From UHGV virus genome UHGV-0110022: 48,769 nt of DNA; one strand, given 5' to 3'. Shown one piece after another: positions 8,885 through 48,769 of the stretch. The notes beneath the pieces are model-generated. The model was not told the origin of the DNA. It saw nothing but the letters and a program-made list of their open reading frames with translations, and ran no database searches. This DNA is from a virus. Position numbers and translations under genes: made by a program. Numbering within the stretch: the first letter of the stretch is position 1; every line of letters begins with the position of its first letter.

Positions 8885-9880
8885 GTGACCGTGAGAGCAC
8901 TACTGACCCCTGAAATTGCCCCGCGTATGGGGATCGTATTGTTCAGACCAGGTTCAGAGCTGATGCCCCTGTTTATGCAGGGGCGTGTCCTGCTGGAGCC
9001 TGAGCCAGAACGTTATTCATCTTTCGCCAGTGGTGCCGTTCCGGCGGCATCACAACCGCTGGCGGATGATCCTGCCGTTCGGGCCGTGTTCCGCAATGAG
9101 GCAGTGATCCGTCGTGCTGGTGGCGTGGAATGTCTTGAAAGCTGTTTACTTCGTGAAAAAGGCTGCCAGTGGCCTTATTCCGACTGGCACAGCGAGAACA
9201 TGACCACAATGCGACACGCGCCGGGCGCAATCCGTCTGTGCTGGCACTGCGATAACCAGCTGCGCGATCAGTTCACGGAACGGCTGGAATCAATGGCAAC
9301 GGATAACTGTGCCCGCTGGGTGTTGTCTGTTGTGCGTCGGGATCTCGGTTTTGATGACAGTCACGTTGTGACAATGCCGGAACTGTGCTGGTGGCTGATT
9401 CGTAATGATCTGGCGGATGCCTTACCGGAAAGTGCAGCCCGTAAGGCACTGAGATTACCGAAGCCTGTTGTGCCGTCTGTCACCCGGGAAAGTGACCTTG
9501 TGCCTTCGGTTCCTGCCACCAGCATCATCCAGGATAAGGCGAAAAAGGTGCTGGCGCTGAAAGTGGATCCGGAGTCGCCGGAGTCTTTTATGTTACGCCC
9601 AAAACGTCGCCGCTGGGTTAATGAAAAGTACACGCGCTGGGTTAAGACACAGCCGTGTGCATGTTGTGGAAAGCCCGCTGATGATCCCCACCACCTGATA
9701 GGTCACGGTCAGAGGGGAATGGGTACAAAAGCGCATGACCTCTTTGTGTTGCCTTTGTGCAGAAAGCATCACGACGAGCTGCATGCGGATACCGTGGCAT
9801 TTGAAGAGAAGTATGGCTCCCAGCTGGAGCTGATATTTCGTTTTATCGATCGTGCGCTGGCAATAGGAGTACTGGCGTAA
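8885..9880 (+). CDS. DUF968 (YdfU-like) prophage protein
   Basis: C-terminal Cys/His-rich region (CACCGKPADDPHH...HHDELH); sits directly upstream of Q as ydfU does in prophage Qin; GTG start. Confidence 0.55.
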   Translation: MTVRALLTPEIAPRMGIVLFRPGSELMPLFMQGRVLLEPEPERYSSFASGAVPAASQPLADDPAVRAVFRNEAVIRRAGGVECLESCLLREKGCQWPYSDWHSENMTTMRHAPGAIRLCWHCDNQLRDQFTERLESMATDNCARWVLSVVRRDLGFDDSHVVTMPELCWWLIRNDLADALPESAARKALRLPKPVVPSVTRESDLVPSVPATSIIQDKAKKVLALKVDPESPESFMLRPKRRRWVNEKYTRWVKTQPCACCGKPADDPHHLIGHGQRGMGTKAHDLFVLPLCRKHHDELHADTVAFEEKYGSQLELIFRFIDRALAIGVLA

Positions 9881-9893
9881 GTGGAGAACGAGC

Positions 9894-10646
9894 ATGAACC
9901 TTGAAGCTTTACCAAAATATTACTCCCCAAAATCTCCAAAATTGAGTGATGACGCACCGGCGACAGGCTCGGGTGGTTTAACAATTACAGATGTGATGGC
10001 TGCGCAGGGGATGGTGCAGTCGAAAGCACCGCTTGGGTTTGCCTTATTCCTGGCAAAAGTTGGTGTTCAGGATCCTCAGTTTGCGATTGAAGGTCTGCTC
10101 AATTACGCGATGGCACTGGATAACCCGACATTGAACAAATTGAGTGAAGAAACCCGGCTACAGATCATTCCTTACCTTGTGAATTTTGCCTTTGCTGATT
10201 ATTCCAGGTCTGCGGCAAGTAAGGCTCGCTGTGAGCGTTGTGCTGGTACTGGATTTCATAATGTATTGCGCGAAGTGGTGAAACACTCCAGAAGCGGGGA
10301 GTCTGTTATCAAAGAAGAGTGGGTGAAGGAACTATGTCAGCATTGTCATGGTAAGGGAGAAGTCAGCACAGCGTGCAGAGGGTGTAAGGGTAAAGGTATT
10401 GTCCTGGATGAAAAAAGAACCCGGCTTCATGGCACGCCTGTTTATAAGATTTGTGGGCGTTGCAATGGAAACCGGTTTAGCCGTTTACCAACCACACTGG
10501 CGCGGCTTCATGTCAAGAAGCTGGTACCAGACCTGACGGATTATCAGTGGTACAAAGGATATGCAGATGTCATTGATAAACTGATTACAAAGTGCTGGCA
10601 GGAAGAGGCATATGCTGAGATGCAATTGAGAAAAGTGACGAAATAA
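9894..10646 (+). CDS. late-gene antiterminator Q-like protein (250 aa) with four CxxCxGxG zinc-finger repeats
   Basis: Position immediately upstream of a late-promoter-like region and the lysis cassette; size matches QuuQ-type Q proteins. Confidence 0.55.
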   Translation: MNLEALPKYYSPKSPKLSDDAPATGSGGLTITDVMAAQGMVQSKAPLGFALFLAKVGVQDPQFAIEGLLNYAMALDNPTLNKLSEETRLQIIPYLVNFAFADYSRSAASKARCERCAGTGFHNVLREVVKHSRSGESVIKEEWVKELCQHCHGKGEVSTACRGCKGKGIVLDEKRTRLHGTPVYKICGRCNGNRFSRLPTTLARLHVKKLVPDLTDYQWYKGYADVIDKLITKCWQEEAYAEMQLRKVTK

Positions 10647-10677
10647 ATGATTTTCACCGAAGATGGCGACATGATGC

Positions 10678-10706
10678 TTGCATTTTTCAAAAAATCTGGT
10701 TAGGAT
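10678..10706 (+). promoter_or_regulatory. late promoter candidate (PR'-like)
   Basis: TTGCAT(10678-10683)-17 nt-TAGGAT(10701-10706) directly downstream of Q. Confidence 0.4.
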
Positions 10707-10754
10707 TTTTTCAATGATGGGCTTTGTCTGTTTACCATTAAATCGCCTAAGAAA

Positions 10755-10780
10755 TCCGCAATGATGCGGGTTTCTTGTTT
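10755..10780 (+). terminator. short hairpin plus T-rich tract (tR'-like)
   Basis: CCGCA-atga-TGCGG followed by GTTTCTTGTTT. Confidence 0.35.
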
Positions 10781-10791
10781 GTAGCAAGTGC

Positions 10792-12045
10792 ATGATGATA
10801 TTGTTTATGCAGGTTGTTACATGTATGGGCGGAAAAATGGATATCTTTGAGTCGTTTAAAGCAGAGAAGCAGAAAAACCATAAAGTTAATATTTACTATA
10901 CTCCTTCGAAACCAGTTTCTTCACCTTCGAATTTGAGAGGGAGGAATGAAGAAATACAGAAGATTTTAGCAGCATTAACAACCCCTGGTCGCCATTGTAT
11001 GATCTATGGTGATCGTGGTATCGGCAAAAGTTCCCTTGCTCTATCTACTCTTGAGGGAGGAAAAGAGCATGAGATTTTACCAGAAATAGTTTTTCAATAT
11101 CGCTGTATAAAAAATACAACGTTTAAAGACATTATTGAAAAAGCTGCTATTTTTATCGATGAAGCCTATAAACATGATAAAGTTGAAACTACTAAGAAGT
11201 ATGGTGCTAGAGCTCGTTTTTTAGATTTATTCAGCTTGGAAGGCTCTAGGGAAGAAAAAATTACTATTGAAAAAGAAGAGTTGACGGCAAATAAAGCTGC
11301 TTCTGTTTTACATCACCTCGAGTCTGTACTTCTTATTGATGAATTTGATGTTGTCAAAGAAGAAGTAAAGCATGAAGTAGCAGAGTTTGTAAAGCAACTT
11401 AGCGATGCTGGAAGTCCATTTAAAGTTTTGATAGTTGGCATAGGTTCTGATGGTGCAGCTTTAATGGCTGGGCATCAGTCAGTAATACGTTGTATGCATG
11501 AAATAAAGTTGCCGCGTGTTGAAGATAAATATCTATCAGAGATAATCGAAAGCGGTGAAAATGGATTGGGTTTGACTTTTTCGCAGCCAATAAAAAAATC
11601 TATTATCGAGATTAGCAGCGGATTCCCTTATTTTACTCATTTATTATGTAAGGAATGTGCAGAAGAGGCTATCCGCCAGTCAAAAACTATTATTGATAGA
11701 AGTATTTTTGAACAAGCCTTGATCGTTGCAGTGAAAAATACTGAAGGTCAATTAAAACGTTGTTACGATCTCGCCGTAACATCTTCTAGAACCGACATGT
11801 ATCCCAAGATCCTTTTATCTGCGGCAAAATTTAAAAATGAACAATTTAGCGTCAAAAATTGGATAGAGCAAATTGCTGAAGATCATGGCTTAGAGCTTAC
11901 ATATGGAAGTATGAATAATTATACTGGTAAGTTAATAAAAGCTGAGCGAGGAGAAATTCTTCAGTTAGTTAGAAGAGGGGTATATAAAATCACGGATCCA
12001 AGAATGCCAAGTTATATTCTTATGTGCCACAATGCGATCCCTTAA
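10792..12045 (+). CDS. stand-alone AAA+-type P-loop ATPase (cargo gene)
   Basis: Walker A GDRGIGKSS, Walker B LLIDEFD; strongly AT-rich relative to flanks; start uncertain (ATG at 10792, 10825 or 10837). Confidence 0.6.
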   Translation: MMILFMQVVTCMGGKMDIFESFKAEKQKNHKVNIYYTPSKPVSSPSNLRGRNEEIQKILAALTTPGRHCMIYGDRGIGKSSLALSTLEGGKEHEILPEIVFQYRCIKNTTFKDIIEKAAIFIDEAYKHDKVETTKKYGARARFLDLFSLEGSREEKITIEKEELTANKAASVLHHLESVLLIDEFDVVKEEVKHEVAEFVKQLSDAGSPFKVLIVGIGSDGAALMAGHQSVIRCMHEIKLPRVEDKYLSEIIESGENGLGLTFSQPIKKSIIEISSGFPYFTHLLCKECAEEAIRQSKTIIDRSIFEQALIVAVKNTEGQLKRCYDLAVTSSRTDMYPKILLSAAKFKNEQFSVKNWIEQIAEDHGLELTYGSMNNYTGKLIKAERGEILQLVRRGVYKITDPRMPSYILMCHNAIP

Positions 12046-36382: not shown

Positions 36383-36428
36383 ATTCGTAATGCGAAGGTC
36401 GTAGGTTCGACTCCTATTATCGGCACCA
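36383..36428 (+). tRNA. thrW: tRNA-Thr 3' fragment (anticodon loop to CCA end); prophage att core / attR-like
   Basis: ATTCGTAATGCGAAGGTCGTAGGTTCGACTCCTATTATCGGCACCA matches the 3' part of tRNA-Thr(CGU) as recalled; 5' acceptor strand GCCGATA absent upstream. Confidence 0.65.
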
Positions 36429-37008
36429 TCAACAGAAAATCCCGTAAAAACAGCATTCTTTAGCATGTTTATCTAACGGTTTGTAACTTCTGTTCTAACG
36501 TCTGTTAGCACTGGTAAACGCCTTTGCGTTGTATCGGCTCAAGTATTGTACAACGTACTGGCGGGTAGTTACCAGGCTCAAGCCCGAACAGCATTAGAAA
36601 TTATGCCATCCCTTGAAGCTAAAAGAGTTGCCGGACTCTCTAAACACATCACTTGAACCCTTAGCGATACGTTCCGCGCTTCGTGCGGCGCTCAATGATG
36701 CTACACGTCGAGATGACGTTGCAGAAAATAAACAGGCGTAATGTTGGGAAGACTAACCGGATCGGGAAAGAATCCGGCTCTGCCACGGTTTCGATCACCG
36801 GAGTATAACGATCACCTGATAAGAGAACGTGCTAAGGCTTTATCCTCCCTGCGAAGGGATTACACCCTGCGGAAGCGCTACGCGCCGCCTTTTCTTATGT
36901 GCCCAACACGGCACGTAATGGTCATCCATTATCTGCACCATTGTAACTTTCGTTGTACTGCCTCTCTGATGTACGTTGAGCGCTGGCAGATTCAGCGGAG
37001 GGGATATC

Positions 37009-37167
37009 ATGTCAAAAGCTAACCAAAAAGCAGCCACGAAGCGCAACAACCGTAAGATTCACGCCCGTAAATTCCTGGCAACACCAGAGGGGAAAGCCTG
37101 GCTTGCTAAGAAGCAGGAAGAGCGAGAGGAAATCAAGTTGGCGCGAGCTGCAAACTTGATGTTTTGA
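37009..37167 (+). CDS. small basic protein (52 aa)
   Basis: GGAGGGG RBS 5 nt before ATG. Confidence 0.4.
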   Translation: MSKANQKAATKRNNRKIHARKFLATPEGKAWLAKKQEEREEIKLARAANLMF

Positions 37168-37178
37168 GATGGGGCTAA

Positions 37179-37979
37179 TCAGCCCCTATTGCCCCTATGC
37201 TTTTTTTCGAATCTTGTCACAACTCTATCCAACCATTTGGGTTCTTCTCTAAGATCTGAGTAGTAACAATTTTCTGGAACCGCGTTCCAGAAAGCAGTTA
37301 TTGCGTTAGCAAAATCTACAAATTGATCTTCTGAGACATGTAAATCGTCATGGTTAGGGACAATCTGCGTGCCTCTAACATCGGTGGGGTTTGGGTAATA
37401 CTCAGGATGATCAACTGATAGTGTTTGATGTGCAGGGCCGTCTCCATGCTTGTATACGTTTACCACCAAGTTACAGGCTTTTATCCTTTCTCCGTATTCG
37501 GTTCCATTGATTGTGAGGCCAATCCATTCGAGCAAATCAATTAGCTGATGGAAAGTTAAATTCCAGATCATGGGGGTAATCAATTCTCTTTCACACCAAT
37601 TACTTAGCTCTTTGATAGTATGTTCTCTTAGTTTTTTATCAAACTGATGATACATACCTGCTGTCAACGCCAACAATACGGTATTTTGCATCTCCAGAAG
37701 CGACCATACATAATAAATTCCCTCATGATAGGCTTGCTCGTAGGCCGCCATTGGGTCATCGTTATCTTGATCAAAATACTCAGCAGTAGTCTCCAAAAAC
37801 TGTTGTTCTCTCTTCTCTGCTTCTTGTTCTAAATCACCAAACTGAGAGAGAAGCCGCCGCCTTGCCTCAGAAACGTAAAATTCATGGGGTTCAAGAAAGT
37901 ATGGAAGATCGGCTCTGGCTAACCAGAAGGTGACAAAATTTTCAGTAGACATACATTTCCTCAATGAAGCGATAGACAT
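37179..37979 (-). CDS. hypothetical protein (266 aa)
   Basis: Long ORF; no recognisable motif; start uncertain. Confidence 0.45.
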   Translation of the reverse strand: MSIASLRKCMSTENFVTFWLARADLPYFLEPHEFYVSEARRRLLSQFGDLEQEAEKREQQFLETTAEYFDQDNDDPMAAYEQAYHEGIYYVWSLLEMQNTVLLALTAGMYHQFDKKLREHTIKELSNWCERELITPMIWNLTFHQLIDLLEWIGLTINGTEYGERIKACNLVVNVYKHGDGPAHQTLSVDHPEYYPNPTDVRGTQIVPNHDDLHVSEDQFVDFANAITAFWNAVPENCYYSDLREEPKWLDRVVTRFEKKHRGNRG

Positions 37980-38115
37980 TTTGAGGTTATGTTATCTTCG
38001 GTGAGGGTTAAAATCCTCAACTGATTCAATGGAATTGTCATTTGGTTTGAAATGCGGTAAAAGAATAAAATTCGTAATGTACGCTTTGCAGAAACAATCT
38101 GAAAATGAGGTGGTT

Positions 38116-38343
38116 ATGAGTGAACGTTACGAATTTTTACCCAATTGCTTCCTGAAAGTCTCTATCTCATCGGGTTACTTTACTGCCATCCTTGATGGTT
38201 CGCTTCCTCCTGATACCCCTGGTTCTGTTCATGCTGATAATGCCACGCAAGTCATAATCGTACTCGATTCCTACTTCCAATTGACTGACTTACAGCATCA
38301 AGGAATTGCTAATTATCTTTGCTCTCAAGGGATGGAACTTTGA
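38116..38343 (+). CDS. hypothetical protein (75 aa)
   Basis: GAGG RBS before ATG 38116. Confidence 0.3.
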   Translation: MSERYEFLPNCFLKVSISSGYFTAILDGSLPPDTPGSVHADNATQVIIVLDSYFQLTDLQHQGIANYLCSQGMEL

Positions 38344-38798
38344 TAGATTGGTTGCTTAATGTTGATAATCTGACCATGCTTGCCGCATGGGCTGGGTTTG
38401 CACTATCCATTTTCCAGCTATTAAAATCCAGAACAGATCTACGCCTTTTCTTAGGTTGCGATCAGTATGAAGACAGAATTTATGTTTCCAACAAAAGCGC
38501 CCATGATGTGACGATAAGTTCGGCGGGCATAGTAACCGCCAGCGGACGCCTTAGCGATTGTTCTAACGAACATTGTGATGAATACATGATCAGCCCCATG
38601 TTGCCACGCCGATTAAAAGCCCGTGATGAAATGATCTTAGAAGTACCATTCATCAATAAGGCTCACCATAATAAGGTGCATCATCGCGGAGGGGTGTATG
38701 TTACTACATCTGATGGGAAGCTGTTCAGTGATGTTAGTTGGCTGCGTCGTCGCTGGTGGTGGATATTGTCTCTGATCCTACGTGATTCCAAGCAGTGA
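38319..38798 (+). CDS. hypothetical protein, possibly membrane (start uncertain)
   Basis: ORF with hydrophobic N-terminal segment; no clear RBS. Confidence 0.3.
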   Translation: MLSRDGTLIDWLLNVDNLTMLAAWAGFALSIFQLLKSRTDLRLFLGCDQYEDRIYVSNKSAHDVTISSAGIVTASGRLSDCSNEHCDEYMISPMLPRRLKARDEMILEVPFINKAHHNKVHHRGGVYVTTSDGKLFSDVSWLRRRWWWILSLILRDSKQ

Positions 38799-38856
38799 TT
38801 ACTTATACACCGCACCAGACCACGCTGGTTATCTGCTTGTCTTCCTTCTTCAATCG

Positions 38857-39054
38857 TTACTCCTCTTCAAAGGTCATTGTGTAGCGGCATTGCTGCGACG
38901 GCCTGAGCGTCACTGTCTCCGTAAAGTTGGCGTTGGAATAAACGCAAATCTTCGCGTTGTCTGTCTCCTGTTCGTCACTGAGAATCAGGGTTATCTGTCC
39001 GGCATTCGCCAGGACTGGCATTACTGTCAGCGTCAGCACAAGCAAGCGTTTCAT
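38857..39054 (-). CDS. small secreted protein (65 aa with signal peptide)
   Basis: AGGAG RBS 7 nt before ATG; signal peptide MKRLLVLTLTVMPVLANA; directly downstream of the recombinase. Confidence 0.45.
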   Translation of the reverse strand: MKRLLVLTLTVMPVLANAGQITLILSDEQETDNAKICVYSNANFTETVTLRPSQQCRYTMTFEEE

Positions 39055-39064
39055 GCGTATCTCC

Positions 39065-39697
39065 TTATAAGTCCATCTCATTGATCACACGGCTAACGGC
39101 TTGCTTGTCTAAATCCAGATAGCGCCTGGTGTCAGTGATGTTGCTGTGATTAAGCACGGTCATAGCTAAAGCGATGTTGTTTGCTGAACGCTTGTAGATG
39201 GCATTCCCGCCAGCTTTGCGGAAGCTGTGAGCTGATACAGTGCCATGAATACCGATAGCTTTAGCGGCCTCTGCGATCTGCTTGCTCACTTCTTCGCGTC
39301 GTACAGGCGCTTGCTTGTTCATTGATCGGTTACGCTGGCTTCTGAACACATGCACATCATGCGGATACTCAGCACGGCGACGAGCAATCATCTGCACCAC
39401 TGGAGCAGGGAGAGTGAGGGCTTTACGCTTCCCTGTCTTCTGTTCTTCTATGTCAATCTCACCGTTGATCACTTCGTCGAAGCGTAACGCTACGGCATCC
39501 CCCACACGCAGTACAGCGGCTTGCATCATTAACGTAACGTCAGCTATCAGGCTCTTGTTATGAGCGTTTAGCCACTCCCTGATCGCTTTGGCTTGCTGTT
39601 CGTCTAACACTACTGCTCTGTTCAATTTACCCTCCCATAAAGACACACATCTAAACTCAACGAAACAAATAATATGATCAATTTCAGTAAGTTGCAA
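39065..39697 (-). CDS. small tyrosine recombinase (catalytic domain only, FimB/FimE-size)
   Basis: Catalytic residues in LRVGDAVALRFDEV (Arg), HSFRKAGG (His-x-x-Arg), TDTRRYL (Tyr); possible TTG start at 39625 after GGGAGGG RBS, giving 186 aa. Confidence 0.55.
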   Translation of the reverse strand: MQLTEIDHIICFVEFRCVSLWEGKLNRAVVLDEQQAKAIREWLNAHNKSLIADVTLMMQAAVLRVGDAVALRFDEVINGEIDIEEQKTGKRKALTLPAPVVQMIARRRAEYPHDVHVFRSQRNRSMNKQAPVRREEVSKQIAEAAKAIGIHGTVSAHSFRKAGGNAIYKRSANNIALAMTVLNHSNITDTRRYLDLDKQAVSRVINEMDL

Positions 39698-40384
39698 TAT
39701 AAATGATCAAAAATCGAACTGTCTTGTGTGTGGTAAATGGCGCGATTGCGTCCAGTGCTTAACGACCTCCAGGGCCGCCTCCAGATCGAAAATTTCTTCT
39801 CCTCTAAATATCTTGAACAAAATCATGATGTTGGCATTTATAAACATGTGTTTGAACATTGCCAAATCCTCAACTCTGCACGAAGAACAGCGGCAACAGC
39901 GGAACATCACACTACCAATGCTTGTGTGTGGTTATTGTCTATCTCATTGATTTAAATCTGATAAATGTAAGGTTGTTAGGCGAGGGCGGGGCTAACCTGC
40001 CTGTATGCACAGATTATGCGGAGTTTATGCACTTGAAACTGAGTGTGTAATGAAATGATTAGAATGCTAATCAATTGGTGGATTTTGGCATGAAAAAGAA
40101 ACATCGTTTCATTTTAGAAAACTCGTTCAGCACATTGCACCTGTCATGAAACTCCTCATTGTGGACAATGATCGCTGTGAGCCGCATGGCGCAAGGCTTT
40201 ACGCAAAGTGAGTGATGGTTACTATCTTGCTGACTATGGCAACTTTACCCATGTAACAACGGCAATCTTTACCTGTCATTTAAGATAGGCTTAGCTATGA
40301 TTATCGTGTTGTTTTGATAGGAATAACCTCTCGTTACTCTTAGTGTTGTTGCATGGATGAATCAGAGTTAGTTGGGGGCGTTAT

Positions 40385-40464
40385 ACATCAAAATGATGTA
40401 TAGATGCATGGGATACGCATCAAATTGATGTATGGATCGGCAAACTACACATCAAATTGATGTT
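40385..40464. repeat. three phased palindromic repeats (putative regulator binding sites)
   Basis: CATCAAA(A/T)TGATG at 40386, 40418, 40450 with exact 32-bp spacing. Confidence 0.5.
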
Positions 40465-41014
40465 CTATACAAAGAGATTCTAAAAGCGATCTCTAAAAGA
40501 GAGCTTTTAGAAGATCTTGTTAAAGATTCGCTTTGCTGGCGCGTATCGCCTGGCAAGTGACCTGATTCGCCTTTGGGGGCTACTCGGTCAGCCGCTCACG
40601 ACGCAGCGTAGCGCATCTGTCTGTGATTGTGCCAGGGCTTCGCCCTCGTGAAACGAGGCACAGAAGCTATGCGCCGTGTGCGCAATGTCTTTCAGGATAA
40701 CTTCTGCCTGTCTTCCATGCTCCGCATTCATCCATGCAAAGTTAGCCCACGGCTAAGGATTCACTGGTCGCTGATGGCTCCAGTTCATCCAGCCTCAATC
40801 CAATACCATCACCTACTATCCTGATAACTAACGTTATCCCTCAGTAGTTGTGCTATTGGTTTCGGGAGTAAGTGCCAGAGGGCGGCGGTAACGCAAACGG
40901 AACGCCCCAGACGCGCTGAGAGCGAATTTGAGAGGATAGGGAGGGGATTGCAACTCTCAGGCTTTCAAACCTGTTAGAAAGCGATAGACCGCGTTTTATG
41001 ATGACATGAATGAG

Positions 41015-41094
41015 TTGATCACAACGTGGAAATGCGCTATAATTTGAAAGGGATTGAAATAAGTGTTGACATTTAAATCATTTCATGTTAAAGT
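41015..41094 (+). promoter_or_regulatory. tandem sigma70-like promoters
   Basis: TTGATC-17 nt-TATAAT (41015-41043) and TTGACA-17 nt-TAAAGT (41066-41094). Confidence 0.45.
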
Positions 41095-41189
41095 AAATGA
41101 TGTAGGGTGATGAAAGCATTCATCCCGTCCTCATCTCAGGCATCCAGCCTAACGCAAACAATCCAACTTACACCGCACTATCAGGCAAC

Positions 41190-41438
41190 GTGATTAACGT
41201 TCTCCCTGGATGGTGTTTCTGTGTTTCTAACGCAAGGAGAACCAAAATTAAGTATTTTAATCCAGAACTTGTCTTCGAGGCTTTAAAGGCCGGAAGCCAG
41301 ACGCGAAATGCAATAAACAGCCAGCGAGCAGCCGCACAACGGCAAGGATATTTCGAACACGCTGAAAGATTGCGTAAAGGAATCGAACTTTACGATCAAT
41401 GGAAAGCTGAACAGGCTGAAACCACCACCAACGAATAA
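41190..41438 (+). CDS. hypothetical protein (start uncertain)
   Basis: ORF with internal AAGGAG at 41233 but no in-frame ATG after it. Confidence 0.3.
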   Translation: MINVLPGWCFCVSNARRTKIKYFNPELVFEALKAGSQTRNAINSQRAAAQRQGYFEHAERLRKGIELYDQWKAEQAETTTNE

Positions 41439-41456
41439 ACCAGAAGGAGAAACCAA

Positions 41457-41633
41457 ATGAGCGAAATCCAGAAGAAGAAACCAGCCGGAACATTCGTAAA
41501 ACTGCCGGATGAAGTGTTTAGTACTTTGTTCAAAGAGGCGCGAGCGAGAGGCGTAACAGTGCAGGAGATGTTAATTGACGCTGCAACCACACTTTCCACA
41601 TCAATTAAGAACGGAGAACGTTCTACCAAATAA
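41457..41633 (+). CDS. small DNA-binding-like protein (58 aa, possible ribbon-helix-helix), not in the ORF track
   Basis: AGAAGGAG RBS 7 nt before ATG; translation MSEIQKKKPAGTFVKLPDEVFSTLFKEARARGVTVQEMLIDAATTL... Confidence 0.4.
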   Translation: MSEIQKKKPAGTFVKLPDEVFSTLFKEARARGVTVQEMLIDAATTLSTSIKNGERSTK

Positions 41634-41647
41634 GGATACACCCTAAC

Positions 41648-42388
41648 ATGACTGACATTATAAACAGTAAGGCTTTTAGTTTCACCAACACCGAAGACGC
41701 ATTTAACGAATGCACCAGGATCACCAATCTTAAAACAGGCGTAACAGAGTCCCTGTCTCCTGCTGATAAGCAGTTTTACGTCAGAATGCGCCATCGTTAT
41801 TATCGCTTTGCGATAGAGTTGGGCGGTACTTATTACGATGACATTGATCAACTTGGTGCAAGTATTGGTGTCAGCTCGGCTACGGCAACACGTATTGTTG
41901 CAAAGTTGAAGAAAATCGGACTGATCGCCAGTAATAAGCCAAAGCGCTCTAACCAATGGACTATAACGCCACTCACGCCGCAAAACTTCACCTTTGAACG
42001 TGATCGTAATGCGATGGAACGTGATTCCGCGCCGGAATGGGTAGATTGTCTGAAACATCCCGTGTTTGGCAAAGCTAAAGAAGACGTAGCGCCAGAGGAA
42101 GAAAAACAGCAGTCAGTGCCAGAAGAGGCCAAAGCAGATCCGAAGCCGGAGAAGCCAAAGAAAATGCCTACGAAGAAACCCGCCTCCATTCCAGCTAAAG
42201 ATATTAAGATAGAGCCAGTTAATTTAAACTTTCTTGAGGGTTATCGGGATGAATGGGAGAATCCTGAAAAGAATCTACCAGTTTCACAACATCCGAAAAT
42301 CAGATGGCTACTTATTAACGGATACCTGGACACAGAGAAGAATCCAAAACTTAAACCAATCTACGAGGAAATAGAACATTTATGCTGA
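41648..42388 (+). CDS. HTH-containing protein (246 aa), possible replication/regulatory protein
   Basis: Winged-helix-like segment IGVSSATATRIVAKLKKIGLI; Lys/Pro/Glu-rich linker. Confidence 0.45.
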   Translation: MTDIINSKAFSFTNTEDAFNECTRITNLKTGVTESLSPADKQFYVRMRHRYYRFAIELGGTYYDDIDQLGASIGVSSATATRIVAKLKKIGLIASNKPKRSNQWTITPLTPQNFTFERDRNAMERDSAPEWVDCLKHPVFGKAKEDVAPEEEKQQSVPEEAKADPKPEKPKKMPTKKPASIPAKDIKIEPVNLNFLEGYRDEWENPEKNLPVSQHPKIRWLLINGYLDTEKNPKLKPIYEEIEHLC

Positions 42389-42843
42389 AAACGGTTATAC
42401 CCAAACAATACAACGAACGTGATCTTAACATCATCCATCTTGCCAGTTTATTAAATCCAGAAGTTGAAAGAGGTGTTGCATTCGAACAAGCGCAAGAACT
42501 TGTAGATGTTTACGCTGAGCGAGGTGAATCAAGTTACGCTAATGCTCTTGTTACGCTATTCAATGCAGCGATGAAGCCACCGAAAGAGATAGAATGTAAA
42601 ATGACATCCCCACATCTTCACGATAAGAATCTGTCTCCTTCGGAACGTCTGGTATTAATGCACCTCGAATCACTGCCATCATTAACAAATGTGAAACAGG
42701 AGTCAATAGCGATAGTGTTGGGGATAAGTGTGGCAACTGTATCCAGTGCGATTCGCAAGCTCCGCCGCAATGATTATCTAACTACTACGTTAATCAAACC
42801 TGGTCGCGGTAAAGGATGCGACATTACACTTACGACTAAATAA
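42382..42843 (+). CDS. winged-helix transcriptional regulator-like protein (153 aa)
   Basis: HTH-like segment IAIVLGISVATVSSAIRKLRRNDYL. Confidence 0.4.
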   Translation: MLKTVIPKQYNERDLNIIHLASLLNPEVERGVAFEQAQELVDVYAERGESSYANALVTLFNAAMKPPKEIECKMTSPHLHDKNLSPSERLVLMHLESLPSLTNVKQESIAIVLGISVATVSSAIRKLRRNDYLTTTLIKPGRGKGCDITLTTK

Positions 42844-42947
42844 CAACAATCGGGAAACTTTTATGATTACTGCTTTATGGTGGTTCACCATATTCTATGG
42901 CGTTTACGTTATAACCAGACAAGGAGTTTCCCCTCTACGAGGAATGA

Positions 42948-43331
42948 ATGGGACGAAAAGAACGAAGTAACCTTGTTAGAATCGAAAAAGCCACACGCAT
43001 CAGCAAACGTAAATACACCTCTTCTCTACAAGACCTCGCACGAGAGTCTATTCCTGGTGAGATGGTGACAACTATTAAAGAATATCCCGCAGTAGTACCA
43101 AATGGATTAGAGTTTGAACTATTGCAGGATGTTCTATCGTCAACGGATAACGTTTATTACAAACCACGACGCAGACGCGAATATATTATAGATAGTAGCC
43201 ATCTCAAGAAATGGCAAATAGCAGGATTTGAACATTACGCCGATTATATTGGGTATTGTCAAACCTGGGGGCTATCCCAGCACACACAAGAGTTTGATAT
43301 TCTCTTTGACGACAAGGAAAACAATGAATAA
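42948..43331 (+). CDS. hypothetical protein (start uncertain)
   Basis: ORF only. Confidence 0.25.
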   Translation: MGRKERSNLVRIEKATRISKRKYTSSLQDLARESIPGEMVTTIKEYPAVVPNGLEFELLQDVLSSTDNVYYKPRRRREYIIDSSHLKKWQIAGFEHYADYIGYCQTWGLSQHTQEFDILFDDKENNE

Positions 43332-43662
43332 TAAAACTATGGACACAGTGAACACCCTAATTAACTCTTTCCACGACAACTGGCATTTACCAACCTTACA
43401 GCTTGTTAATGCAGCGTGGCGTGAGAGAACGCCCTCCGCGCTTCTGGAAGCGGTGCAATACACTGAACAGGCAATCACTGCCCTTGAACATCTGCAAACG
43501 TCTGTAGCTCGTTTGGTGCAGCGTGACGGCAGTTCGATCACACCAGAAGAAGCGTGGCGTGTAGCTAATGACCTTGAGGAGCTTGCTTGCTCTCTGCAAT
43601 ACATCACCGTTGAACTCGGAGAGCTTTCCATCCAGATCGCGGAAGAATGCGCCATAACATAA
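43324..43662 (+). CDS. hypothetical protein (112 aa)
   Basis: AAGGAAA RBS before ATG 43324. Confidence 0.35.
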   Translation: MNNKTMDTVNTLINSFHDNWHLPTLQLVNAAWRERTPSALLEAVQYTEQAITALEHLQTSVARLVQRDGSSITPEEAWRVANDLEELACSLQYITVELGELSIQIAEECAIT

Positions 43663-43677
43663 AAGTTACTAAATGTC

Positions 43678-43706
43678 TTGACATTATGTGCTATATGTGT
43701 CATAAT
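43678..43706 (+). promoter_or_regulatory. near-consensus sigma70 promoter
   Basis: TTGACA(43678-43683)-17 nt-CATAAT(43701-43706). Confidence 0.55.
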
Positions 43707-44236
43707 GAGTTATAGGGTAAGTATTCGAATCACTTCACCCTCGTATGTCAATACGCACTCCTTGAGAATGCCGTTCCCATAGCGGCATTCTCTCCCTCTG
43801 AATGCTATTTCTGAAAGTGTTGGTTCTTTGTCTTGTTTGTTCCGAAGGAATGCGCGGGATGTAATATCTCGTTGTGTTGGTATTGCATCGCAATCACCGC
43901 GCATCTCCGACTTTTTCAGAAAGGGCATTCGCTCTTTGCTCATTCATTCCGTTAGGATGAATGTAGTCAGACTGAATAAACGCCGTCAGCGGTAGTTACG
44001 TTCAGGCTGGCAATCTCTTATTACTATTCCAGTGGTGATATTGAGATTCCATTCCCACTTCTCGCCATGACAGAAGGGCTTCTGTTTTGAAGTGGGAGCA
44101 ATGACGGGCGATCCTACTTCTGTTATTCGTAACAGTTGCGCCCTTCATTTTTTCAAGAAGCCATTCTTTAACATCATAATCCTCCGAAACGAAAATGATT
44201 TTAACAGAATGCTTTCTAACAAGGGCATATTCTCCA

Positions 44237-44258
44237 GGGGCTTAATCGCCCCTTTTTA
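44237..44258 (+). terminator. rho-independent terminator at the end of a structured leader
   Basis: GGGGC-ttaatc-GCCCC followed by TTTTT. Confidence 0.55.
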
Positions 44259-44328
44259 ACAATCTGCATGTAACACTTCCGTTATTAATGGAAGGATAAA
44301 CGCAGTTATAACGCGAAGGAACAACACA

Positions 44329-44544
44329 ATGTTCTTAATAAACAATCGCGACCGAATCCTAAAATACAAATCCGAAGTGATTCAAGTTAATCCTGAGTTA
44401 ATAGCTAAAGTGGCTGAAATGGCAGGATGTACCGTTGAAGAAATAGAAAAAGCTGTAGACCAGTATTTCCCTTCTGAGGACACACCTCAACTTAGTATGC
44501 AGGAACGGATCGCAATCAAATCCAAGGAAATCAAACAACAATGA
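44329..44544 (+). CDS. hypothetical protein (71 aa)
   Basis: AAGGAA RBS; first gene of the capsid-like cluster. Confidence 0.4.
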   Translation: MFLINNRDRILKYKSEVIQVNPELIAKVAEMAGCTVEEIEKAVDQYFPSEDTPQLSMQERIAIKSKEIKQQ

Positions 44545-44900
44545 TTGTAGACCTAACCGAACTTTTCCCAATTCGTAAGAGTTTCACTGACGTATTGAGC
44601 TACGCCACTGATTCTTTTGCAGTCGTAGAAGGCCGTGTTTTCGACCTGCCAGCAGATATTGAATGCGGCGATGTTATCGGCGCTGATGGCGCTCTATACA
44701 CCTCCGGCGATGATGCCTTTGTGGTGGTAAGTGATTTCGTGAGTGCTGGCGACGGTAAAACCGTGAATGTCCTACGTGCGCCTAATGTTGGTAGCTTCGT
44801 AGCACTGAAAGCCGACAACCTGCACGCAGCTAATCACGCCGCAGCTATCACCACGCTCGAATCCAAAGGGTTCGTATGCCGTCCATTCTTCACCTCTTAA
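44541..44900 (+). CDS. head decoration protein-like (D-like, putative)
   Basis: 119-aa Gly/Ala/Val-rich protein immediately upstream of an E-like capsid gene; ATGA overlap. Confidence 0.4.
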   Translation: MIVDLTELFPIRKSFTDVLSYATDSFAVVEGRVFDLPADIECGDVIGADGALYTSGDDAFVVVSDFVSAGDGKTVNVLRAPNVGSFVALKADNLHAANHAAAITTLESKGFVCRPFFTS

Positions 44901-44916
44901 TCAAGGAAGATAAATA

Positions 44917-45948
44917 ATGAGTAAAATCGCAATTGGGCGTGAGATGGTCGATTTAGCGCCAATCTTCCAGGCTCTGCCGGAACGTAACTATCTTATGAAT
45001 GCCCTCGACCTATTCGACGGGGTAGGTGTTCAGAATCCGAAAGTGGTGGTGACACAGCTTCTGGATGATAACTACAGCCTGTTTAACACCCCGCAGAGCC
45101 GTTATTCATCAAACCACGACACTACCGCGCGTCAGAATGGCAAAGAATACCTTATCGAGATTCCTTGGTTTGCAAGGGAAGATGAGTTTAAACCTGTAGA
45201 CGTACAAGGCCGCAGAGTGCAGGGAACGGACTACGAGCAAACCGTTACCGACCTGTACACCGAATACACTGGCAAACATAAGATTGCTTATCTGCGTACC
45301 CGTGAGTCTTACCTGGCCCGTGCTCTGTTCAAAGGTGAAGTTTATACGCCTGCAACTGATGACCTACTGATCTCTTATGCTGAACTGTTCGGTGTGGTGC
45401 CAATGACAGCCAGCGTGAGCACAGCGACAGCGGCACAGGATTTTGATGCGATCTTAGACAAAGTTCAGGCTGCCGCAGGTGGATTGGCTGGACAGATTGA
45501 ACGAGTGATCGTATTCGCTAAACCTGCTGCATTTAGCCAGATTCGCTTCTCTGACAGTATGTCTAAGGCGTTCCAGTATGTAGCGCCATATGACGACCGT
45601 AACCTATTCTACCAGCGTCACGAGCTTCTCCCTGGTGTTAGTACGTTTAGCCTACCTGGTGCGCCTATCGACATTGTTAAAGTGACAGATCCGCTGATCC
45701 TTGCACAGATGCCAGATGATGCTGACATGGTGGCGGTTCCGGTGTTCAGTAAAGGCACAAATGCTTATCAGAACATCTACGGCGCTGCCTCTGGTAACTT
45801 TGCGCTGATCGATGCTGCACCTGCTGAATACTACTCTTGGGGCTACCTGAGCGAGCGCGGCGATGCTTACCACGTTATGCACGAAAACAGCGCATTACCA
45901 GTGAACCATGCGTTAGGTATGCAGGTGAAGATCACCATCACTGCTTAA
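44917..45948 (+). CDS. major capsid protein, E-like family (putative)
   Basis: 343 aa, lambda gpE-like size and composition; follows decoration-like gene. Confidence 0.5.
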   Translation: MSKIAIGREMVDLAPIFQALPERNYLMNALDLFDGVGVQNPKVVVTQLLDDNYSLFNTPQSRYSSNHDTTARQNGKEYLIEIPWFAREDEFKPVDVQGRRVQGTDYEQTVTDLYTEYTGKHKIAYLRTRESYLARALFKGEVYTPATDDLLISYAELFGVVPMTASVSTATAAQDFDAILDKVQAAAGGLAGQIERVIVFAKPAAFSQIRFSDSMSKAFQYVAPYDDRNLFYQRHELLPGVSTFSLPGAPIDIVKVTDPLILAQMPDDADMVAVPVFSKGTNAYQNIYGAASGNFALIDAAPAEYYSWGYLSERGDAYHVMHENSALPVNHALGMQVKITITA

Positions 45949-46067
45949 TGAGCAAGCGGGAGCCTGACCCGCTGGAAATAATCAGGCTATTGAATATGGC
46001 GTGTGAACGTTGGGAACATCTCCCCAGTGTTCCCGCCCTTTTTTATTTCCAGAATGAGGAAAGATAA

Positions 46068-46265
46068 ATGCAAGTGATTGTAAAAAGCGCGGGGCTTCAC
46101 CTCGCCGTAAATGCTGAAACAGCAGAAGAGTTATTAAATCTGGCGGGAGTGTGTCGTGTGCTTGAAATAGATCACGGTCATCTACGTCAGTTATTACATC
46201 GTGGGCGTAGTGTATCAGATGCACTTAATTATCTGGTGAGTAAAAAAGGCGGTGGCGATGCTTGA
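46068..46265 (+). CDS. hypothetical protein (65 aa)
   Basis: GAGGAAA RBS. Confidence 0.35.
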   Translation: MQVIVKSAGLHLAVNAETAEELLNLAGVCRVLEIDHGHLRQLLHRGRSVSDALNYLVSKKGGGDA

Positions 46266-48102
46266 GATTAATACAAGTAAGATCGTCAACACCGTAACTT
46301 TCACCGTTGACAAAGGGAGTATTGCAGAGGCTAAGGCCGCAGCGGATAACCTTCAAAAGCACTTCCAGAAAATAGCCGATCCCAAGATTCGCTTCCAGGA
46401 TCTGAAGCAGCGCAGACAGAAAGCCCGTCAACAAGCCGATGATGCACGTTTTAATGATAAGCCTCGTGATACGAAGGAAATGAAAGCCCAACGTGCGGCG
46501 GAGAAGCAGAAAGCCAGGGATGAAAAGGCCAATCTGAAAGCGAAGCAGCAGCTACAGAAGCGCCAAGAGACAGCCGAGCTTAAACTTCGCCATGCAGGGC
46601 TACAAGTGTCAGGAATTAAAGGTAAATACGGGCTTGATCCTAAATCTCAGTATGAAGCGTTACGTTATATTCATCAGCAAAGCGAAGAGTTTGCGAAGGG
46701 GAATATTAGCTCTCAACGTATGAATGCGCTTATACGCGAGCGTGTAACCCTGTTACGCAGAGAAGCCGCACAACAAGCGAAAGTGACACAGGCACAGCGT
46801 ACCCAGTATGCCGCAGCAGCCACTAAGCTAAAGGCTCAGAAGGGCGGGAATGCTCCTATCGTCGGTGGTGGGGTATTAGGAAGCCTTGCGTTAACGGCTG
46901 GCTCCCTCGGAGTGGGGCAGCGAATTGTTGACAAAGGGAATGAAAATCTTGACTTGGTTAGAAAATCGGAACTTGTTAAGACTAATCCTAACGTAGTTAA
47001 AACGATGGTGGCATGGGGGCAGCAACACGGAGTTGATAGCGCCAATGTCGATAAAGTGACGGACAATTTCAAAGATGTACGTGAACGTATCGCTATGACC
47101 CTGAACGATAGCCAGTTTAAAAATGGCGAATGGAAAGGCGGCGATGGTGGTATCACTTCTATTATGAATAAGTTTGGATGGGGCAAAGAACAGATTAAAT
47201 CCTTCCAGGATCGTCCTGCTGATCTACTTCAAGCAGTTACCAATGAAGGGCAACGCCGTGGTATGTCACAGGCTCAGATTGGTACGCTTATAGAGAGTTT
47301 AGGTGATGACCTGATGCACTACACCGATATGTTCATGAACAACGGTGCAGAATATAACAAGACGCTGAAACAGCTTGTCGATAGTGGTCAAACTCTTAAC
47401 GAGGAGCAGATCAAGCAAACTCTTGCATATGGTGATCTGAGTGTAGCGATGGGTAATCTCATGAATGGCGTTGATAACAGCATGTTTACAGGCTTTATGA
47501 AAGGCTTTGCTGATGGTGGTGACGACCTGGTGAAGAACACCAAAGTGATAACAGAATCTGCTGGTATGCTCGGAGAGGGATTAGGCGACCTGGCTAAACA
47601 GGTGACGGGCTTTGTTGGAGAAATCTCCAGCGTAGTGTCTGATCTTAACAGTGCGCTTCGTCAGCGCTTCCCTGAATGGTTTAGCGATACTAAGAAACCT
47701 GCTGTTCAAAATCTTTATGATGGTGCTGTGGGTGGCTCTGCGAATGCTACGGCCGATTGGATTCAGGATAAAACGGGGTTTGATACCCGTTCAGTGGCTC
47801 CGGCTATCATGGATTGGTTGGGCGTTGGTAATCAGCAAGCAGGGACAGCGGCTAATCAATACAGCCTTTCAGGGGAAAATCTCCGTGCTTCGGCAATGTC
47901 GCTCAACAGCAGCAACGCGCCAGCGTACACGTTGAACCCGATATTCAACCTACAAGTGAATCCACAAGTGGGATTGACTCTGCAAAGTGATGTTTCTCGA
48001 TTGTCTGACTATATCGACTGGTCTGCAAAAGCGAGTGCGGATTCATTCACTCGTAGCCTTACGCTATCAGCCTTGAGCGGTCAGTCATCCACAGGGGGAT
48101 GA
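46258..48102 (+). CDS. large virion-associated protein, function unknown (tape-measure-like or scaffold-like composition)
   Basis: N-terminal Lys/Gln/Ala-rich coiled-coil region, Gly-rich central region; start ATG 46258 or GTG 46252. Confidence 0.4.
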   Translation: MLEINTSKIVNTVTFTVDKGSIAEAKAAADNLQKHFQKIADPKIRFQDLKQRRQKARQQADDARFNDKPRDTKEMKAQRAAEKQKARDEKANLKAKQQLQKRQETAELKLRHAGLQVSGIKGKYGLDPKSQYEALRYIHQQSEEFAKGNISSQRMNALIRERVTLLRREAAQQAKVTQAQRTQYAAAATKLKAQKGGNAPIVGGGVLGSLALTAGSLGVGQRIVDKGNENLDLVRKSELVKTNPNVVKTMVAWGQQHGVDSANVDKVTDNFKDVRERIAMTLNDSQFKNGEWKGGDGGITSIMNKFGWGKEQIKSFQDRPADLLQAVTNEGQRRGMSQAQIGTLIESLGDDLMHYTDMFMNNGAEYNKTLKQLVDSGQTLNEEQIKQTLAYGDLSVAMGNLMNGVDNSMFTGFMKGFADGGDDLVKNTKVITESAGMLGEGLGDLAKQVTGFVGEISSVVSDLNSALRQRFPEWFSDTKKPAVQNLYDGAVGGSANATADWIQDKTGFDTRSVAPAIMDWLGVGNQQAGTAANQYSLSGENLRASAMSLNSSNAPAYTLNPIFNLQVNPQVGLTLQSDVSRLSDYIDWSAKASADSFTRSLTLSALSGQSSTGG

Positions 48103-48253
48103 TTGTGATGTAAATCACATGGGAATACCACATATTGCGCTCGCTTTGTAAAGGATGTGTATATGTGGTGTTTTTCTTTGACGCCGCTTCGTTTGTCCCT
48201 TACCCTTAAAAGGGTAAGCAGTTCACTCTTTATCTCCAAGATGAGGTGTTTTT

Positions 48254-48382
48254 ATGGCTAAGAAAACAGTAGTTCGTTCTGCGATAACTGGTCAGTTTGT
48301 TAAGCCCATTGAAGCTAAACGACATCCTGATACTACGATAACTGAAACTATCAAAATCCCTACCAAGAAAGCTAAGAAATAA
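48254..48382 (+). CDS. small basic protein (42 aa), not in the ORF track
   Basis: GAGGTG RBS 5 nt before ATG; translation MAKKTVVRSAITGQFVKPIEAKRHPDTTITETIKIPTKKAKK. Confidence 0.3.
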   Translation: MAKKTVVRSAITGQFVKPIEAKRHPDTTITETIKIPTKKAKK

Positions 48383-48440
48383 AAATATCTCAAAGTGCCC
48401 ATAGCGGCGCTTATTCATTTGAATGTCTGGAGAGAATTAA

Positions 48441-48719
48441 ATGGCAAACAACTTGTTTGTAACCTATGACTTGATCAAAACCAAAGATTATGCTGCTGTG
48501 CATGATGCTATCAAGGCCTTGGGCAACTGGGCAAAAGTTACCGAGTCGAACTGGTACGTAAATTCGAATTATTCGGTTGAAGAGGCTGCCAGAAAAGTTC
48601 GGGCAGCGATGGATAGCGATGATAAGTTGATTGTTGTTGATGCTAAGAATAACTCTGCTTCCTGGTATAACCTTTTGCCAGCAGTTGAGAATCAAATTCA
48701 AAACGAATGGAATAAATGA
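48441..48719 (+). CDS. hypothetical protein (92 aa)
   Basis: ORF followed by hairpin GGGGGAT..ATCCCCCC. Confidence 0.4.
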   Translation: MANNLFVTYDLIKTKDYAAVHDAIKALGNWAKVTESNWYVNSNYSVEEAARKVRAAMDSDDKLIVVDAKNNSASWYNLLPAVENQIQNEWNK

Positions 48720-48769
48720 GTTATCGGGGGATGGATAATCCCCCCTTAATTACTGGACGTTGTAATTTA

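Follow-up and report, generated by a model that had tools for sequence, protein, structure and literature searches.

The window analysed here, a stretch of 48,769 nucleotides (nt) from the virus genome UHGV-0110022, contains at its right end (positions 36429-48769) most of a 13.7-kb integrative island that likely is a phage satellite of phi92/phAPEC8-like virulent myophages, equipped with genes for its own capsid shell and its own tail tape measure protein (TMP). The island has its own integrase and attachment (att) sites but no complete set of virion and lysis genes, which is how satellites are operationally recognized. Among phage satellites as a known kind, it would represent a new family; this placement is based on comparative sequence and structure evidence only, and mobilisation of the island is predicted from the same data. 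The original prediction for this region had proposed either a tandemly integrated, satellite-like or capsid-forming island or a decaying prophage, and the first of these views is supported by the att repeats, the integrase, and the capsid genes.

The 616-amino-acid (aa) open reading frame (ORF) near the right end of the window codes for a tail TMP of 614 aa (46258-48102, plus strand; the true start is at 46258), homologous from end to end to the TMPs of the Stephanstirmvirinae. It belongs to phrog_16051 (2.5e-99), and tblastn retrieved 134 phage records with 40-41% identity, nearly all of them ~150-kb genomes of the phAPEC8/phi92 type (Stephanstirmvirinae). In the Phapecoctavirus ESCO5 and the Klebsiella phage 05F01, the homologue is located after the sheath, tube, and chaperone genes. 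The pairwise alignment with ESCO5 gp244 (662 aa; 2e-89) extends from the first to the last residue. The sole match in the PDB is Phi92_gp134 (5.6e-70), which is the virion TMP of phi92 and has its C-terminus inside the baseplate (PMC13450770). Both ends of the protein are highly conserved, with 19 of the 22 N-terminal residues identical to phi92 and an identical C-terminal SGQSSTGG, as opposed to only 30-40% identity in the middle. The TMPs of Stephanstirmvirinae comprise 635-662 aa. Compared with the phi92 and ESCO5 proteins, the island TMP is shorter by 45-48 residues, or ~7 nm at 1.5-1.6 Å per residue. In many Enterobacterales genomes the protein carries the RefSeq label "cell envelope integrity protein TolA", a misannotation caused by its charged coiled-coil N-terminal third. 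The earlier claim that this region contains no terminase, portal, or tail genes thus holds for terminase and portal but not for the tail, because the 616-aa ORF codes for a TMP.

The capsid genes are located upstream of the TMP gene on the same strand, and the predicted set of 71-, 119-, 343-, and 616-aa products was found as described. The 343-aa protein (44917-45948, plus strand) can be assigned firmly, on the grounds of its profile matches and its predicted structure, as a major capsid protein (MCP) with HK97 fold and of the lambda-E type. It matches Pfam Phage_cap_E (8.4e-15) over profile positions 2-328 of 329, and the family of its homologues is small (46 clusters) and entirely enterobacterial. 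An AlphaFold model (28 homologues in the alignment; pLDDT 78.7) adopts the capsid fold that the original prediction had called for: Foldseek matched it to the capsid of PhiTE (6.6e-18), the MCP of ICP1, the capsids of Bas63, Sf14, and YSD1/Chi, and lambda gpE (~2e-10). The best solved relative in searches with the MCP family profile is the phi92 MCP, Phi92_gp124 (1.8e-18), and the alignment with the ESCO5 MCP in hhalign is end-to-end (probability 98%, 18% identity). No close relative of the island MCP was found in phages.

Directly upstream, the 119-aa protein (44541-44900, plus strand) is, judged by its predicted fold, a putative gpD-type cement (decoration) protein with a beta-tulip. Its AlphaFold model (pLDDT 74, ~90 in the core) gave five best PDB matches in Foldseek that are all decoration or cement proteins (from PhiTE, Sf14, Bas63, and YSD1; E 7e-3 to 3e-2, TM ~0.5), and lambda gpD and P21 SHP were next. 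The capsid proteins of the same four phages are among the matches of the island MCP. The D-like and E-like labels of the original prediction thus proved right, firmly for the E-like protein and at the level of the fold for the D-like one. At the sequence level, the 119-aa protein has no match outside the family, including the ESCO5 decoration protein, PDB chains, Pfam, and PHROG. The gene order cement-MCP is common to the island, phi92 (gp123, gp124), and ESCO5. The operon starts with a gene for a 71-aa acidic protein (44329-44544, plus strand), which is conserved in 35 family ORFs and may be a mini-scaffold; relative to the order scaffold-cement-MCP in the helper group, it occupies the position of the scaffold gene.

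With the MCP profile, 12 loci were recovered from GTDB genomes and 29 from IMG/VR, in addition to metagenome contigs. The ~40 related loci come from more than 10 enterobacterial genera, including Escherichia, Enterobacter, Pseudenterobacter, Kluyvera, Scandinavium, Buttiauxella, and Citrobacter. When the ORFs of all these loci were compared with ESCO5 and 05F01, further genes shared with this phage group emerged. In 21 loci the TMP gene is followed by a gene for a tube initiator of 224 aa, with up to 71.5% identity to ESCO5 gp243 and a match to Phi92_gp135 (1.3e-91). All complete elements with a TMP of only 27-31% identity to that of the window carry this gene, and the elements with a window-type TMP, including the window itself, lack it. 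Two distant relatives (L006 and L050) also encode a head-tail adaptor that matches Phi92_gp126 (3.2e-29); for the L006 gene, hmmscan did not reproduce the precomputed Pfam label Phage_Adaptor_PhiTE, but PDB searches (Phi92 and PhiTE adaptors) confirmed the assignment. According to tblastn, the adaptor is absent from the window. Finally, a gene for a small secreted protein of 65 aa (phrog_4641; 38857-39054, minus strand) with a signal peptide and two conserved cysteines was found in 15 family loci. It resembles ESCO5 gp105, as seen when the family hidden Markov model was searched against the ESCO5 ORFs (1.3e-20) and in a pairwise comparison with gp105 itself (L019 4946-5155; 46% identity, 2e-19). 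This protein could act in the periplasm, as a factor for superinfection exclusion or one related to entry. The homologies of TMP, tube initiator, adaptor, and secreted protein together point to phi92/phAPEC8-like virulent myophages as helper.

Alternatively, the helper could be an unsequenced temperate or other phage with phi92-like structural genes rather than any of the known virulent Stephanstirmvirinae. This would agree with the modest identity of the best phage TMPs (32-41%), with the isolated position of the island MCP, and with the TMP of L006, which matches other ~140-kb Klebsiella myophages. However, all phage matches, be it to the TMP, the tube initiator, the adaptor, or the gp105-like protein, are to virulent myophages of ~140-150 kb, and the 71.5% identity of the tube initiator to its ESCO5 counterpart implies recent exchange with that group. 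Moreover, the 120 closest TMP relatives listed, which are 80-94% identical, at most 621 aa long, and all located on chromosomes or contigs, look like further island copies rather than phage genes, and none of them is annotated as phage-borne. An unsequenced helper of this kind is therefore quite unlikely, and known Stephanstirmvirinae-like phages remain the preferred candidates.

The boundaries of the island are well defined. It begins behind a 46-nt 3' fragment of the tRNA-Thr gene thrW (36383-36428, plus strand), which is the longest tRNA suffix match; the fragment had been recognized in the original prediction, and ARAGORN detected no intact tRNA in the window. This fragment is attR of an SfII-like prophage on the left and, at the same time, attL of the island, and its last 19 nt (36410-36428) form the att core ACTCCTATTATCGGCACCA, the part of the tRNA 3' end that recurs without mismatch at the other boundary of the element. 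From 36429 to 48769, the window is 99.8% identical over the full length to nine complete E. coli chromosomes. In E. coli EC361 (24 of 12341 positions differ) the island is located directly behind an intact thrW with proA upstream and no prophage in between, and the thrW 3' end GTTCGACTCCTATTATCGGCACCATCAA is repeated 13,703 nt downstream as GTTACACTCCTATTATCGGCACCATTAA, with the perfect 19-nt core common to both. This attR (L001 31680-31707) lies just past the gene for the 407-aa island integrase (L001 30322-31545, minus strand), which contains DUF6538, SAM-like, and Phage_integrase catalytic domains. The window copy ends 1.37 kb short of the complete 13.7-kb element and retains only the last 20 nt of the integrase gene 3' end (48750-48769, minus strand); the remainder of this gene and attR lie beyond the window end. 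Apart from the integrase and the second att repeat, the extension to the right in EC361 contributes no genes for terminase, portal, or tail. In eight loci, two copies of the identical thrW core flank the element at a distance of 12.0-14.1 kb, and in a distant branch (L004-L006) tRNA-Leu is the insertion site instead of thrW. The family targets the 3' ends of tRNA genes, here thrW.

To the right of attR, the EC361 chromosome (L001 31718-36400) harbors a truncated second integrase, IS100, tail-fibre fragments, and a DNA invertase. This debris of further insertions identifies thrW as a tandem-insertion hotspot. The thrW elements of O157 Sakai were also considered, but both are outside the family: Sp1 is a degraded lambdoid element and Sp2 a true P4-like one.

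The change in gene content at 36429, noted in the original prediction, marks the border between two separate elements. On the left, window positions 12000-36000, with the morphogenesis genes of the prophage, are 96-98% identical to serotype-converting temperate myophages of the SfI/SfII/SfIV type, which have their own terminase, portal, sheath, and tape measure genes. On the right is the island, which occurs prophage-free in other E. coli. The two share one att site in tandem, and SfII-type phages are myophages with a TMP, so that the island might be regarded as a satellite or dependent of its neighbour, as the original prediction implied. However, none of the island proteins has a match in window positions 1-36400 at E < 1e-3, the island resides at thrW without the prophage in EC361 and in E. 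coli 2313, and its homologues point elsewhere. The SfII-like prophage was rejected as helper, a role that is extremely improbable for it. Between the DNA invertase of the prophage and the att fragment, the segment 35198-36103 contains AT-rich ORFs.

In the complete 13.7-kb element, searches against Pfam, PHROG, and NCBIfam detected no terminase, portal, protease, or lysis genes and, apart from the TMP, no tail genes. MCP, TMP, and integrase are the only ORFs longer than 266 aa in the whole element; thus, a portal (>300 aa) and a large terminase (>400 aa) are excluded by size too, but a small protein resembling a small terminase subunit (TerS) is possible among the ORFs of 58-153 aa. A gene content of this kind could also be what is left of a conventional prophage after loss of the terminase, portal, and tail genes, the second view offered in the original prediction. 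The location at a tRNA hotspot with prophage debris (the truncated integrase, IS100, and tail-fibre fragments in EC361) would be in line with such decay, as would the output of gene callers, which report nothing but a "major capsid protein" and hypothetical proteins. Decay is difficult to reconcile, however, with the conservation of the family. The ~40 loci in many genera have identical gene order, a size of 12.0-14.1 kb, and intact ORFs; the MCP has 342-357 aa in 39 of 41 loci and the TMP 608-640 aa in 31 of 35. The att repeats and the integrase are intact, and the EC361 annotation contains no pseudogenes within the island. Ratios of nonsynonymous to synonymous substitution rates (dN/dS) are 0.05-0.08 for the MCP, 0.11-0.18 for the cement protein in most comparisons, 0.13-0.19 for the TMP, and 0.22-0.24 for the 127-aa gene described below, indicating purifying selection on the island genes. 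Furthermore, the retained genes are homologous to those of a virulent, non-integrating phage group. A decaying prophage is thus very unlikely and this part of the original prediction is not upheld.

Within the family, head and tail modules have reassorted recently. Between the window and locus L027, synonymous divergence (dS) is 0.13 for the MCP but 0.87 for the TMP, and elements with an MCP 99% identical to that of the window (L053-L056 from Logan contigs, and L059) can encode a different, 624-aa TMP together with a 223-aa Dit-like tube initiator, so that near-identical MCPs occur both with and without a tube initiator. The latter gene is located at L059 12566-13279 in E. coli 2313, where this tube-initiator-type element occurs alone at thrW. 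The exact MCP was found on 189 contigs, and clusters of MCP and TMP at >=90% identity comprise five genera (Escherichia, Enterobacter, Cronobacter, Citrobacter, and Klebsiella), which indicates recent spread between genera. The TMP relatives, with at least 1600 clusters at 90% identity that are mostly singletons, greatly exceed the MCP in diversity. Of 5426 complete E. coli genomes, 339 (~6%) match the cement and MCP genes at the DNA level, in all cases on the chromosome; this number is an upper bound, because most matches span only a conserved part of the MCP gene.

The capsid operon is preceded by a promoter and a structured leader RNA of ~600 nt (43678-44328, plus strand), located between the gene for a 112-aa protein and the operon. 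The promoter (43678-43706) is close to the sigma-70 consensus, with TTGACA-17-(TG)TCATAAT matching at 11 of 12 positions and an extended -10 element. Two more promoter-like sites with 10 of 12 matches (41015-41094) face the early operon. The strong promoters of the original prediction thus exist locally, but their total does not stand out, with 27 promoter-like sites compared to 20.8 +/- 4.7 in shuffled sequences. Conservation of the leader DNA equals or exceeds that of the flanking genes. In a consensus fold with 14 helices, derived from an 11-locus alignment, 95.3% of the alignment cells are paired as opposed to 38-46% when the pairing partners are slid, and compensatory double changes affect 34 of 79 pairs as opposed to 5-10; none of 500 shuffles reached these values. 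The last hairpin (44236-44253) is GC-rich, followed by a T-run, and located just upstream of the capsid operon. No Rfam family matched the leader, and nothing credible was obtained for the other gene-free regions. A covariance model of the leader found matches in the closer subfamily only and not in ESCO5. The leader may function as an attenuator, as an antitermination switch, or as a regulatory RNA, and would silence the late operon until the helper arrives.

Based on these features, a life cycle can be proposed for the island. Infection by a phi92-like phage would trigger excision and replication of the island and expression of the capsid/TMP operon, which otherwise would be gated by the structured leader RNA with its terminator. 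The island MCP and cement protein would then form a small shell for ~13 kb of DNA on the portal and with the packaging machinery of the helper. The phi92 head has T=13 symmetry and holds 148 kb (PMC13450770). If the volume is scaled by T^1.5 relative to this head, a shell with T=3-4 would fit the ~13.7-kb genome. The P4/P2 and PLE/ICP1 capsid ratios also entered this estimate. The narrow size range of 12-14 kb within the family agrees with a constraint imposed by capsid size. The island TMP, whose ends match those of the helper protein, would be built into otherwise helper-made contractile tails, which would be ~7 nm shorter than normal. The ends of the TMP, which are its conserved parts, are the contact points of such a protein with the baseplate hub and tube initiator and with the tail terminator, and the subtypes with a more diverged TMP also bring the cognate tube initiator. 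The resulting chimeric particles would spread the island, and interference with the helper is probable.

Several observations weigh against this proposal. No TerS and no pac or cos site were identified in the island, and outside the TMP gene no DNA similarity to ESCO5 was found when shared pac sites and promoters were sought. Shell assembly from the island MCP, with only 18% identity to that of the helper, would need to proceed on a portal and scaffold of foreign origin, which is unprecedented for satellites, given that cf-PICIs bring a portal of their own. Even the best TMP matches among sequenced phages reach no more than 32-41% identity, so that the actual helper may be a relative without a sequenced genome. 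All related contigs represent integrated forms: the IMG/VR matches are provirus predictions in genomes, the 13.7-kb metagenome contigs L004-L006 have no terminal overlap that would indicate a free or circular form but end in tRNA-Leu att repeats or an insertion sequence, and searches of metagenome and viral contigs for the exact 33-nt attP junction were negative.

Alternatively, the island could serve defence only and not be packaged at all, but spread by other means or only vertically. The capsid, cement, and tape measure proteins would then act as dominant-negative decoys against phi92-like phages. Homologues of structural proteins that keep helper-like interaction ends would be apt for poisoning virion assembly, a Kiwa defence system replaces the TMP in one relative, and satellites and PICIs with systems interfering with tail assembly are known (PMC11364771). 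In addition, neither a packaging signal nor a terminase subunit nor a free or circular form was detected. Other features are more typical of packaged satellites, namely the size range of 12.0-14.1 kb, the integrase with att sites, and the replication module of the island. The occurrence of near-identical elements in five genera also argues against this scenario, and the strong purifying selection on the shell gene pair (dN/dS 0.05-0.08) exceeds what decoys would need. Besides, interference and transfer do not exclude each other in known satellites. A purely defensive island thus appears unlikely, and the interpretation as a satellite that is packaged with the help of phi92-like phages is preferred.

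The remaining genes of the island are arranged around the capsid operon and the TMP gene. A non-coding left arm beside att (36429-37008) shows 85-93% DNA identity in 6-12 of 15 diverged relatives, in contrast to the adjoining cargo, which is not conserved; it likely is an attP arm or regulatory DNA. It is followed by a gene for a basic protein of 52 aa (w63; 37009-37167, plus strand), which is a RefSeq coding sequence in EC361. This protein is conserved at the left end of the family loci and 73-94% identical in most of them, even where the MCP is only 53% identical. A first variable cargo slot (37179-38798) contains a minus-strand gene for a 257/266-aa protein of phrog_19541, a PHROG family without known function, as well as ORFs of 75 and 152 aa. 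It has no DNA match in any of the 15 relatives and is specific to this copy. A second cargo slot (48103-48749) to the right of the TMP gene contains an ORF of 42 aa and a gene for a 92-aa protein (phrog_1090); in many relatives, the phi92-type tube initiator gene is found in this slot. No Pfam, NCBIfam, or PADLOC match was obtained for the cargo genes at 37179-38798 and 48254-48719. The copy-specific genes of both slots are candidates for defence or counter-defence functions. In L004, a metagenome contig from the tRNA-Leu branch, the Kiwa genes KwaB and KwaA occupy the position of the TMP gene (9566-11108), which fits a role of the right-hand slot as a defence or accessory hotspot.

Besides the 407-aa integrase, the island encodes a second, small tyrosine recombinase, already noted in the original prediction, of 186 aa (39065-39625, minus strand). 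It consists of the catalytic domain only, matches Pfam Phage_integrase (3.7e-16) over profile positions 2-171 of 172, and has an Xer-like NCBIfam match below the cut-off. All catalytic residues appear to be present in its sequence, and possible roles are multimer resolution, excision control, or inversion. The protein is 93-97% identical between loci whose capsid proteins are only ~55% identical. The adjacent 1.5-kb stretch (39626-41189) contains no annotated gene but an inverted repeat, palindromes, and promoter-like sites. The perfect 14-nt inverted repeat, TTGCATGGATGAAT at 40349-40362 and ATTCATCCATGCAA at 40726-40739, surrounds a 363-nt cassette with three palindromic 18-mers at a spacing of 32 nt (40382-40463). 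An invertible switch operated by the small recombinase was considered and rejected: the cassette is inverted in none of the relatives, and in some of them (L017, L028) its flanks are kept but the interior is swapped along with the replication module. The cassette (40349-40739) probably is the origin or the operator set of the early module.

This early/replication module (41190-42843, plus strand) encodes proteins of 82, 58, 246, and 153 aa, among them the helix-turn-helix proteins of the original prediction. The 246-aa protein contains DUF6945 and a winged helix (Pfam) and matches a PHROG replication initiation protein (5.2e-10), and the 153-aa protein matches Pfam HTH_36 (1.6e-8). In relatives, the module is swapped for other replication genes. 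It is followed by two family-specific core genes (42948-43662, plus strand) for proteins of 127 and 112 aa, which are present in 35 and 29 family loci, respectively, have dN/dS values of about 0.22-0.24, and gave no match in Pfam, PHROG, or PDB. A similarity of the 127-aa protein to ESCO5 gp095 was too weak to be used (hhalign probability 44%). A gene for a 65-aa protein (46068-46265, plus strand) overlaps the start of the TMP gene and is conserved in 35 family ORFs. It was considered as a tail chaperone, but the protein does not match the chaperone ORFs of the helpers.

Among known systems, the PLEs (phage-inducible chromosomal island-like elements) of Vibrio cholerae, satellites of the virulent myophage ICP1, are integrated islands of a similar size class that parasitise a large virulent myophage, as proposed for the island described here. 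The PLE TMP is 19-41% identical to that of ICP1 and is selectively incorporated, giving rise to chimeric tails that are ~10 nm shorter (PMC12987554). In both systems the TMP is shorter than that of the helper (582 vs 677 aa in PLE, 614 vs 659-662 aa here), its identity to the helper protein is low (19-41% and 32-41%, respectively), and in some members a component of the baseplate hub or a tube initiator is encoded as well; by analogy, the mechanism may be the same. However, the Pfam and PHROG scans revealed no PLE-type annotations and thus no homology to PLE genes, and the island has a tyrosine integrase at a tRNA site, enterobacterial hosts, and no detectable tail assembly chaperone. PLEs remodel the capsid protein of the helper by means of the external scaffold TcaP, whereas the island has its own MCP and putative cement protein.

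An own HK97-fold MCP in a tRNA- or att-integrated enterobacterial island of ~13-15 kb that would use helper tails is also characteristic of the cf-PICIs, whose known helpers are temperate phages. Some cf-PICIs are reported to contain putative tmp genes (PMC12987554, Extended Data Fig. 10). Their 11 core components include TerS, the large terminase subunit (TerL), HNH, portal, prohead protease, adaptor, and connector, and the cf-PICI model of SatelliteFinder treats tail genes as "forbidden" (PMC10085698). The island differs by the lack of TerS, TerL, HNH, portal, and protease, in the window copy also of the adaptor, and by the presence of a tail gene. The EPIPs (Extracellular Prophage-Inducing Particles) of Mycolicibacterium are reported to combine an MCP and a TMP in a small satellite genome (PMC12822802). 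In contrast to the island, they possess a small terminase, adaptor, stopper, scaffold, and serine integrase, occur in another phylum, and have a siphophage helper. P4-like elements resemble the island as integrative, tRNA-targeting enterobacterial satellites of 11-13 kb whose small genome implies a small capsid, and control of an operon by leader RNA is known from P4. However, no homologues of Sid, Psu, delta, epsilon, or the alpha primase were found in the island (Pfam, PHROG), and P4 uses the capsid protein of its helper. With classical PICIs the island shares an integrase and a replication-initiator-like protein, but AlpA and TerS were not found and MCP and TMP are present.

The Stephanstirmvirinae themselves (phi92, ESCO5, phAPEC8) share with the island the Phage_cap_E family of the MCP and the order of the cement-MCP and TMP-tube initiator gene pairs, which in the phages is cement gp123 - MCP gp124 ... 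adaptor gp126 ... TMP gp134 - tube initiator gp135. These phages are virulent, have genomes of 145-150 kb and T=13 heads, and encode portal, terminase, sheath, tube, and baseplate; only 3-5 such genes are kept in the island.

No description of satellites of phi92, rV5, phAPEC8, Stephanstirmvirinae, or Phapecoctavirus phages was found in the literature. The family would be invisible to current satellite finders owing to its "forbidden" tail gene and its lack of terminase and portal genes. Somewhat tentatively, these islands might be viewed as the first satellite family of large virulent myophages in Enterobacterales, one that remodels both ends of the virion, is gated by a leader RNA, and is widespread but has been missed by such tools. 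If the proposed lifestyle is correct, satellite-helper biology in E. coli, the best-studied host, would extend to large virulent phages such as the phAPEC8/phi92-like ones employed therapeutically, for which the Vibrio PLE-ICP1 pair so far offers the only detailed model. A satellite could then own a capsid shell without having its own portal or terminase, and the replacement of TMP and tube initiator, newly found in PLEs (Nature 2026), would be a recurrent strategy. Moreover, therapeutic phages of the phi92 type could have a reduced or altered efficacy where such islands are present, and the islands could transfer DNA from one enterobacterial genus to another.

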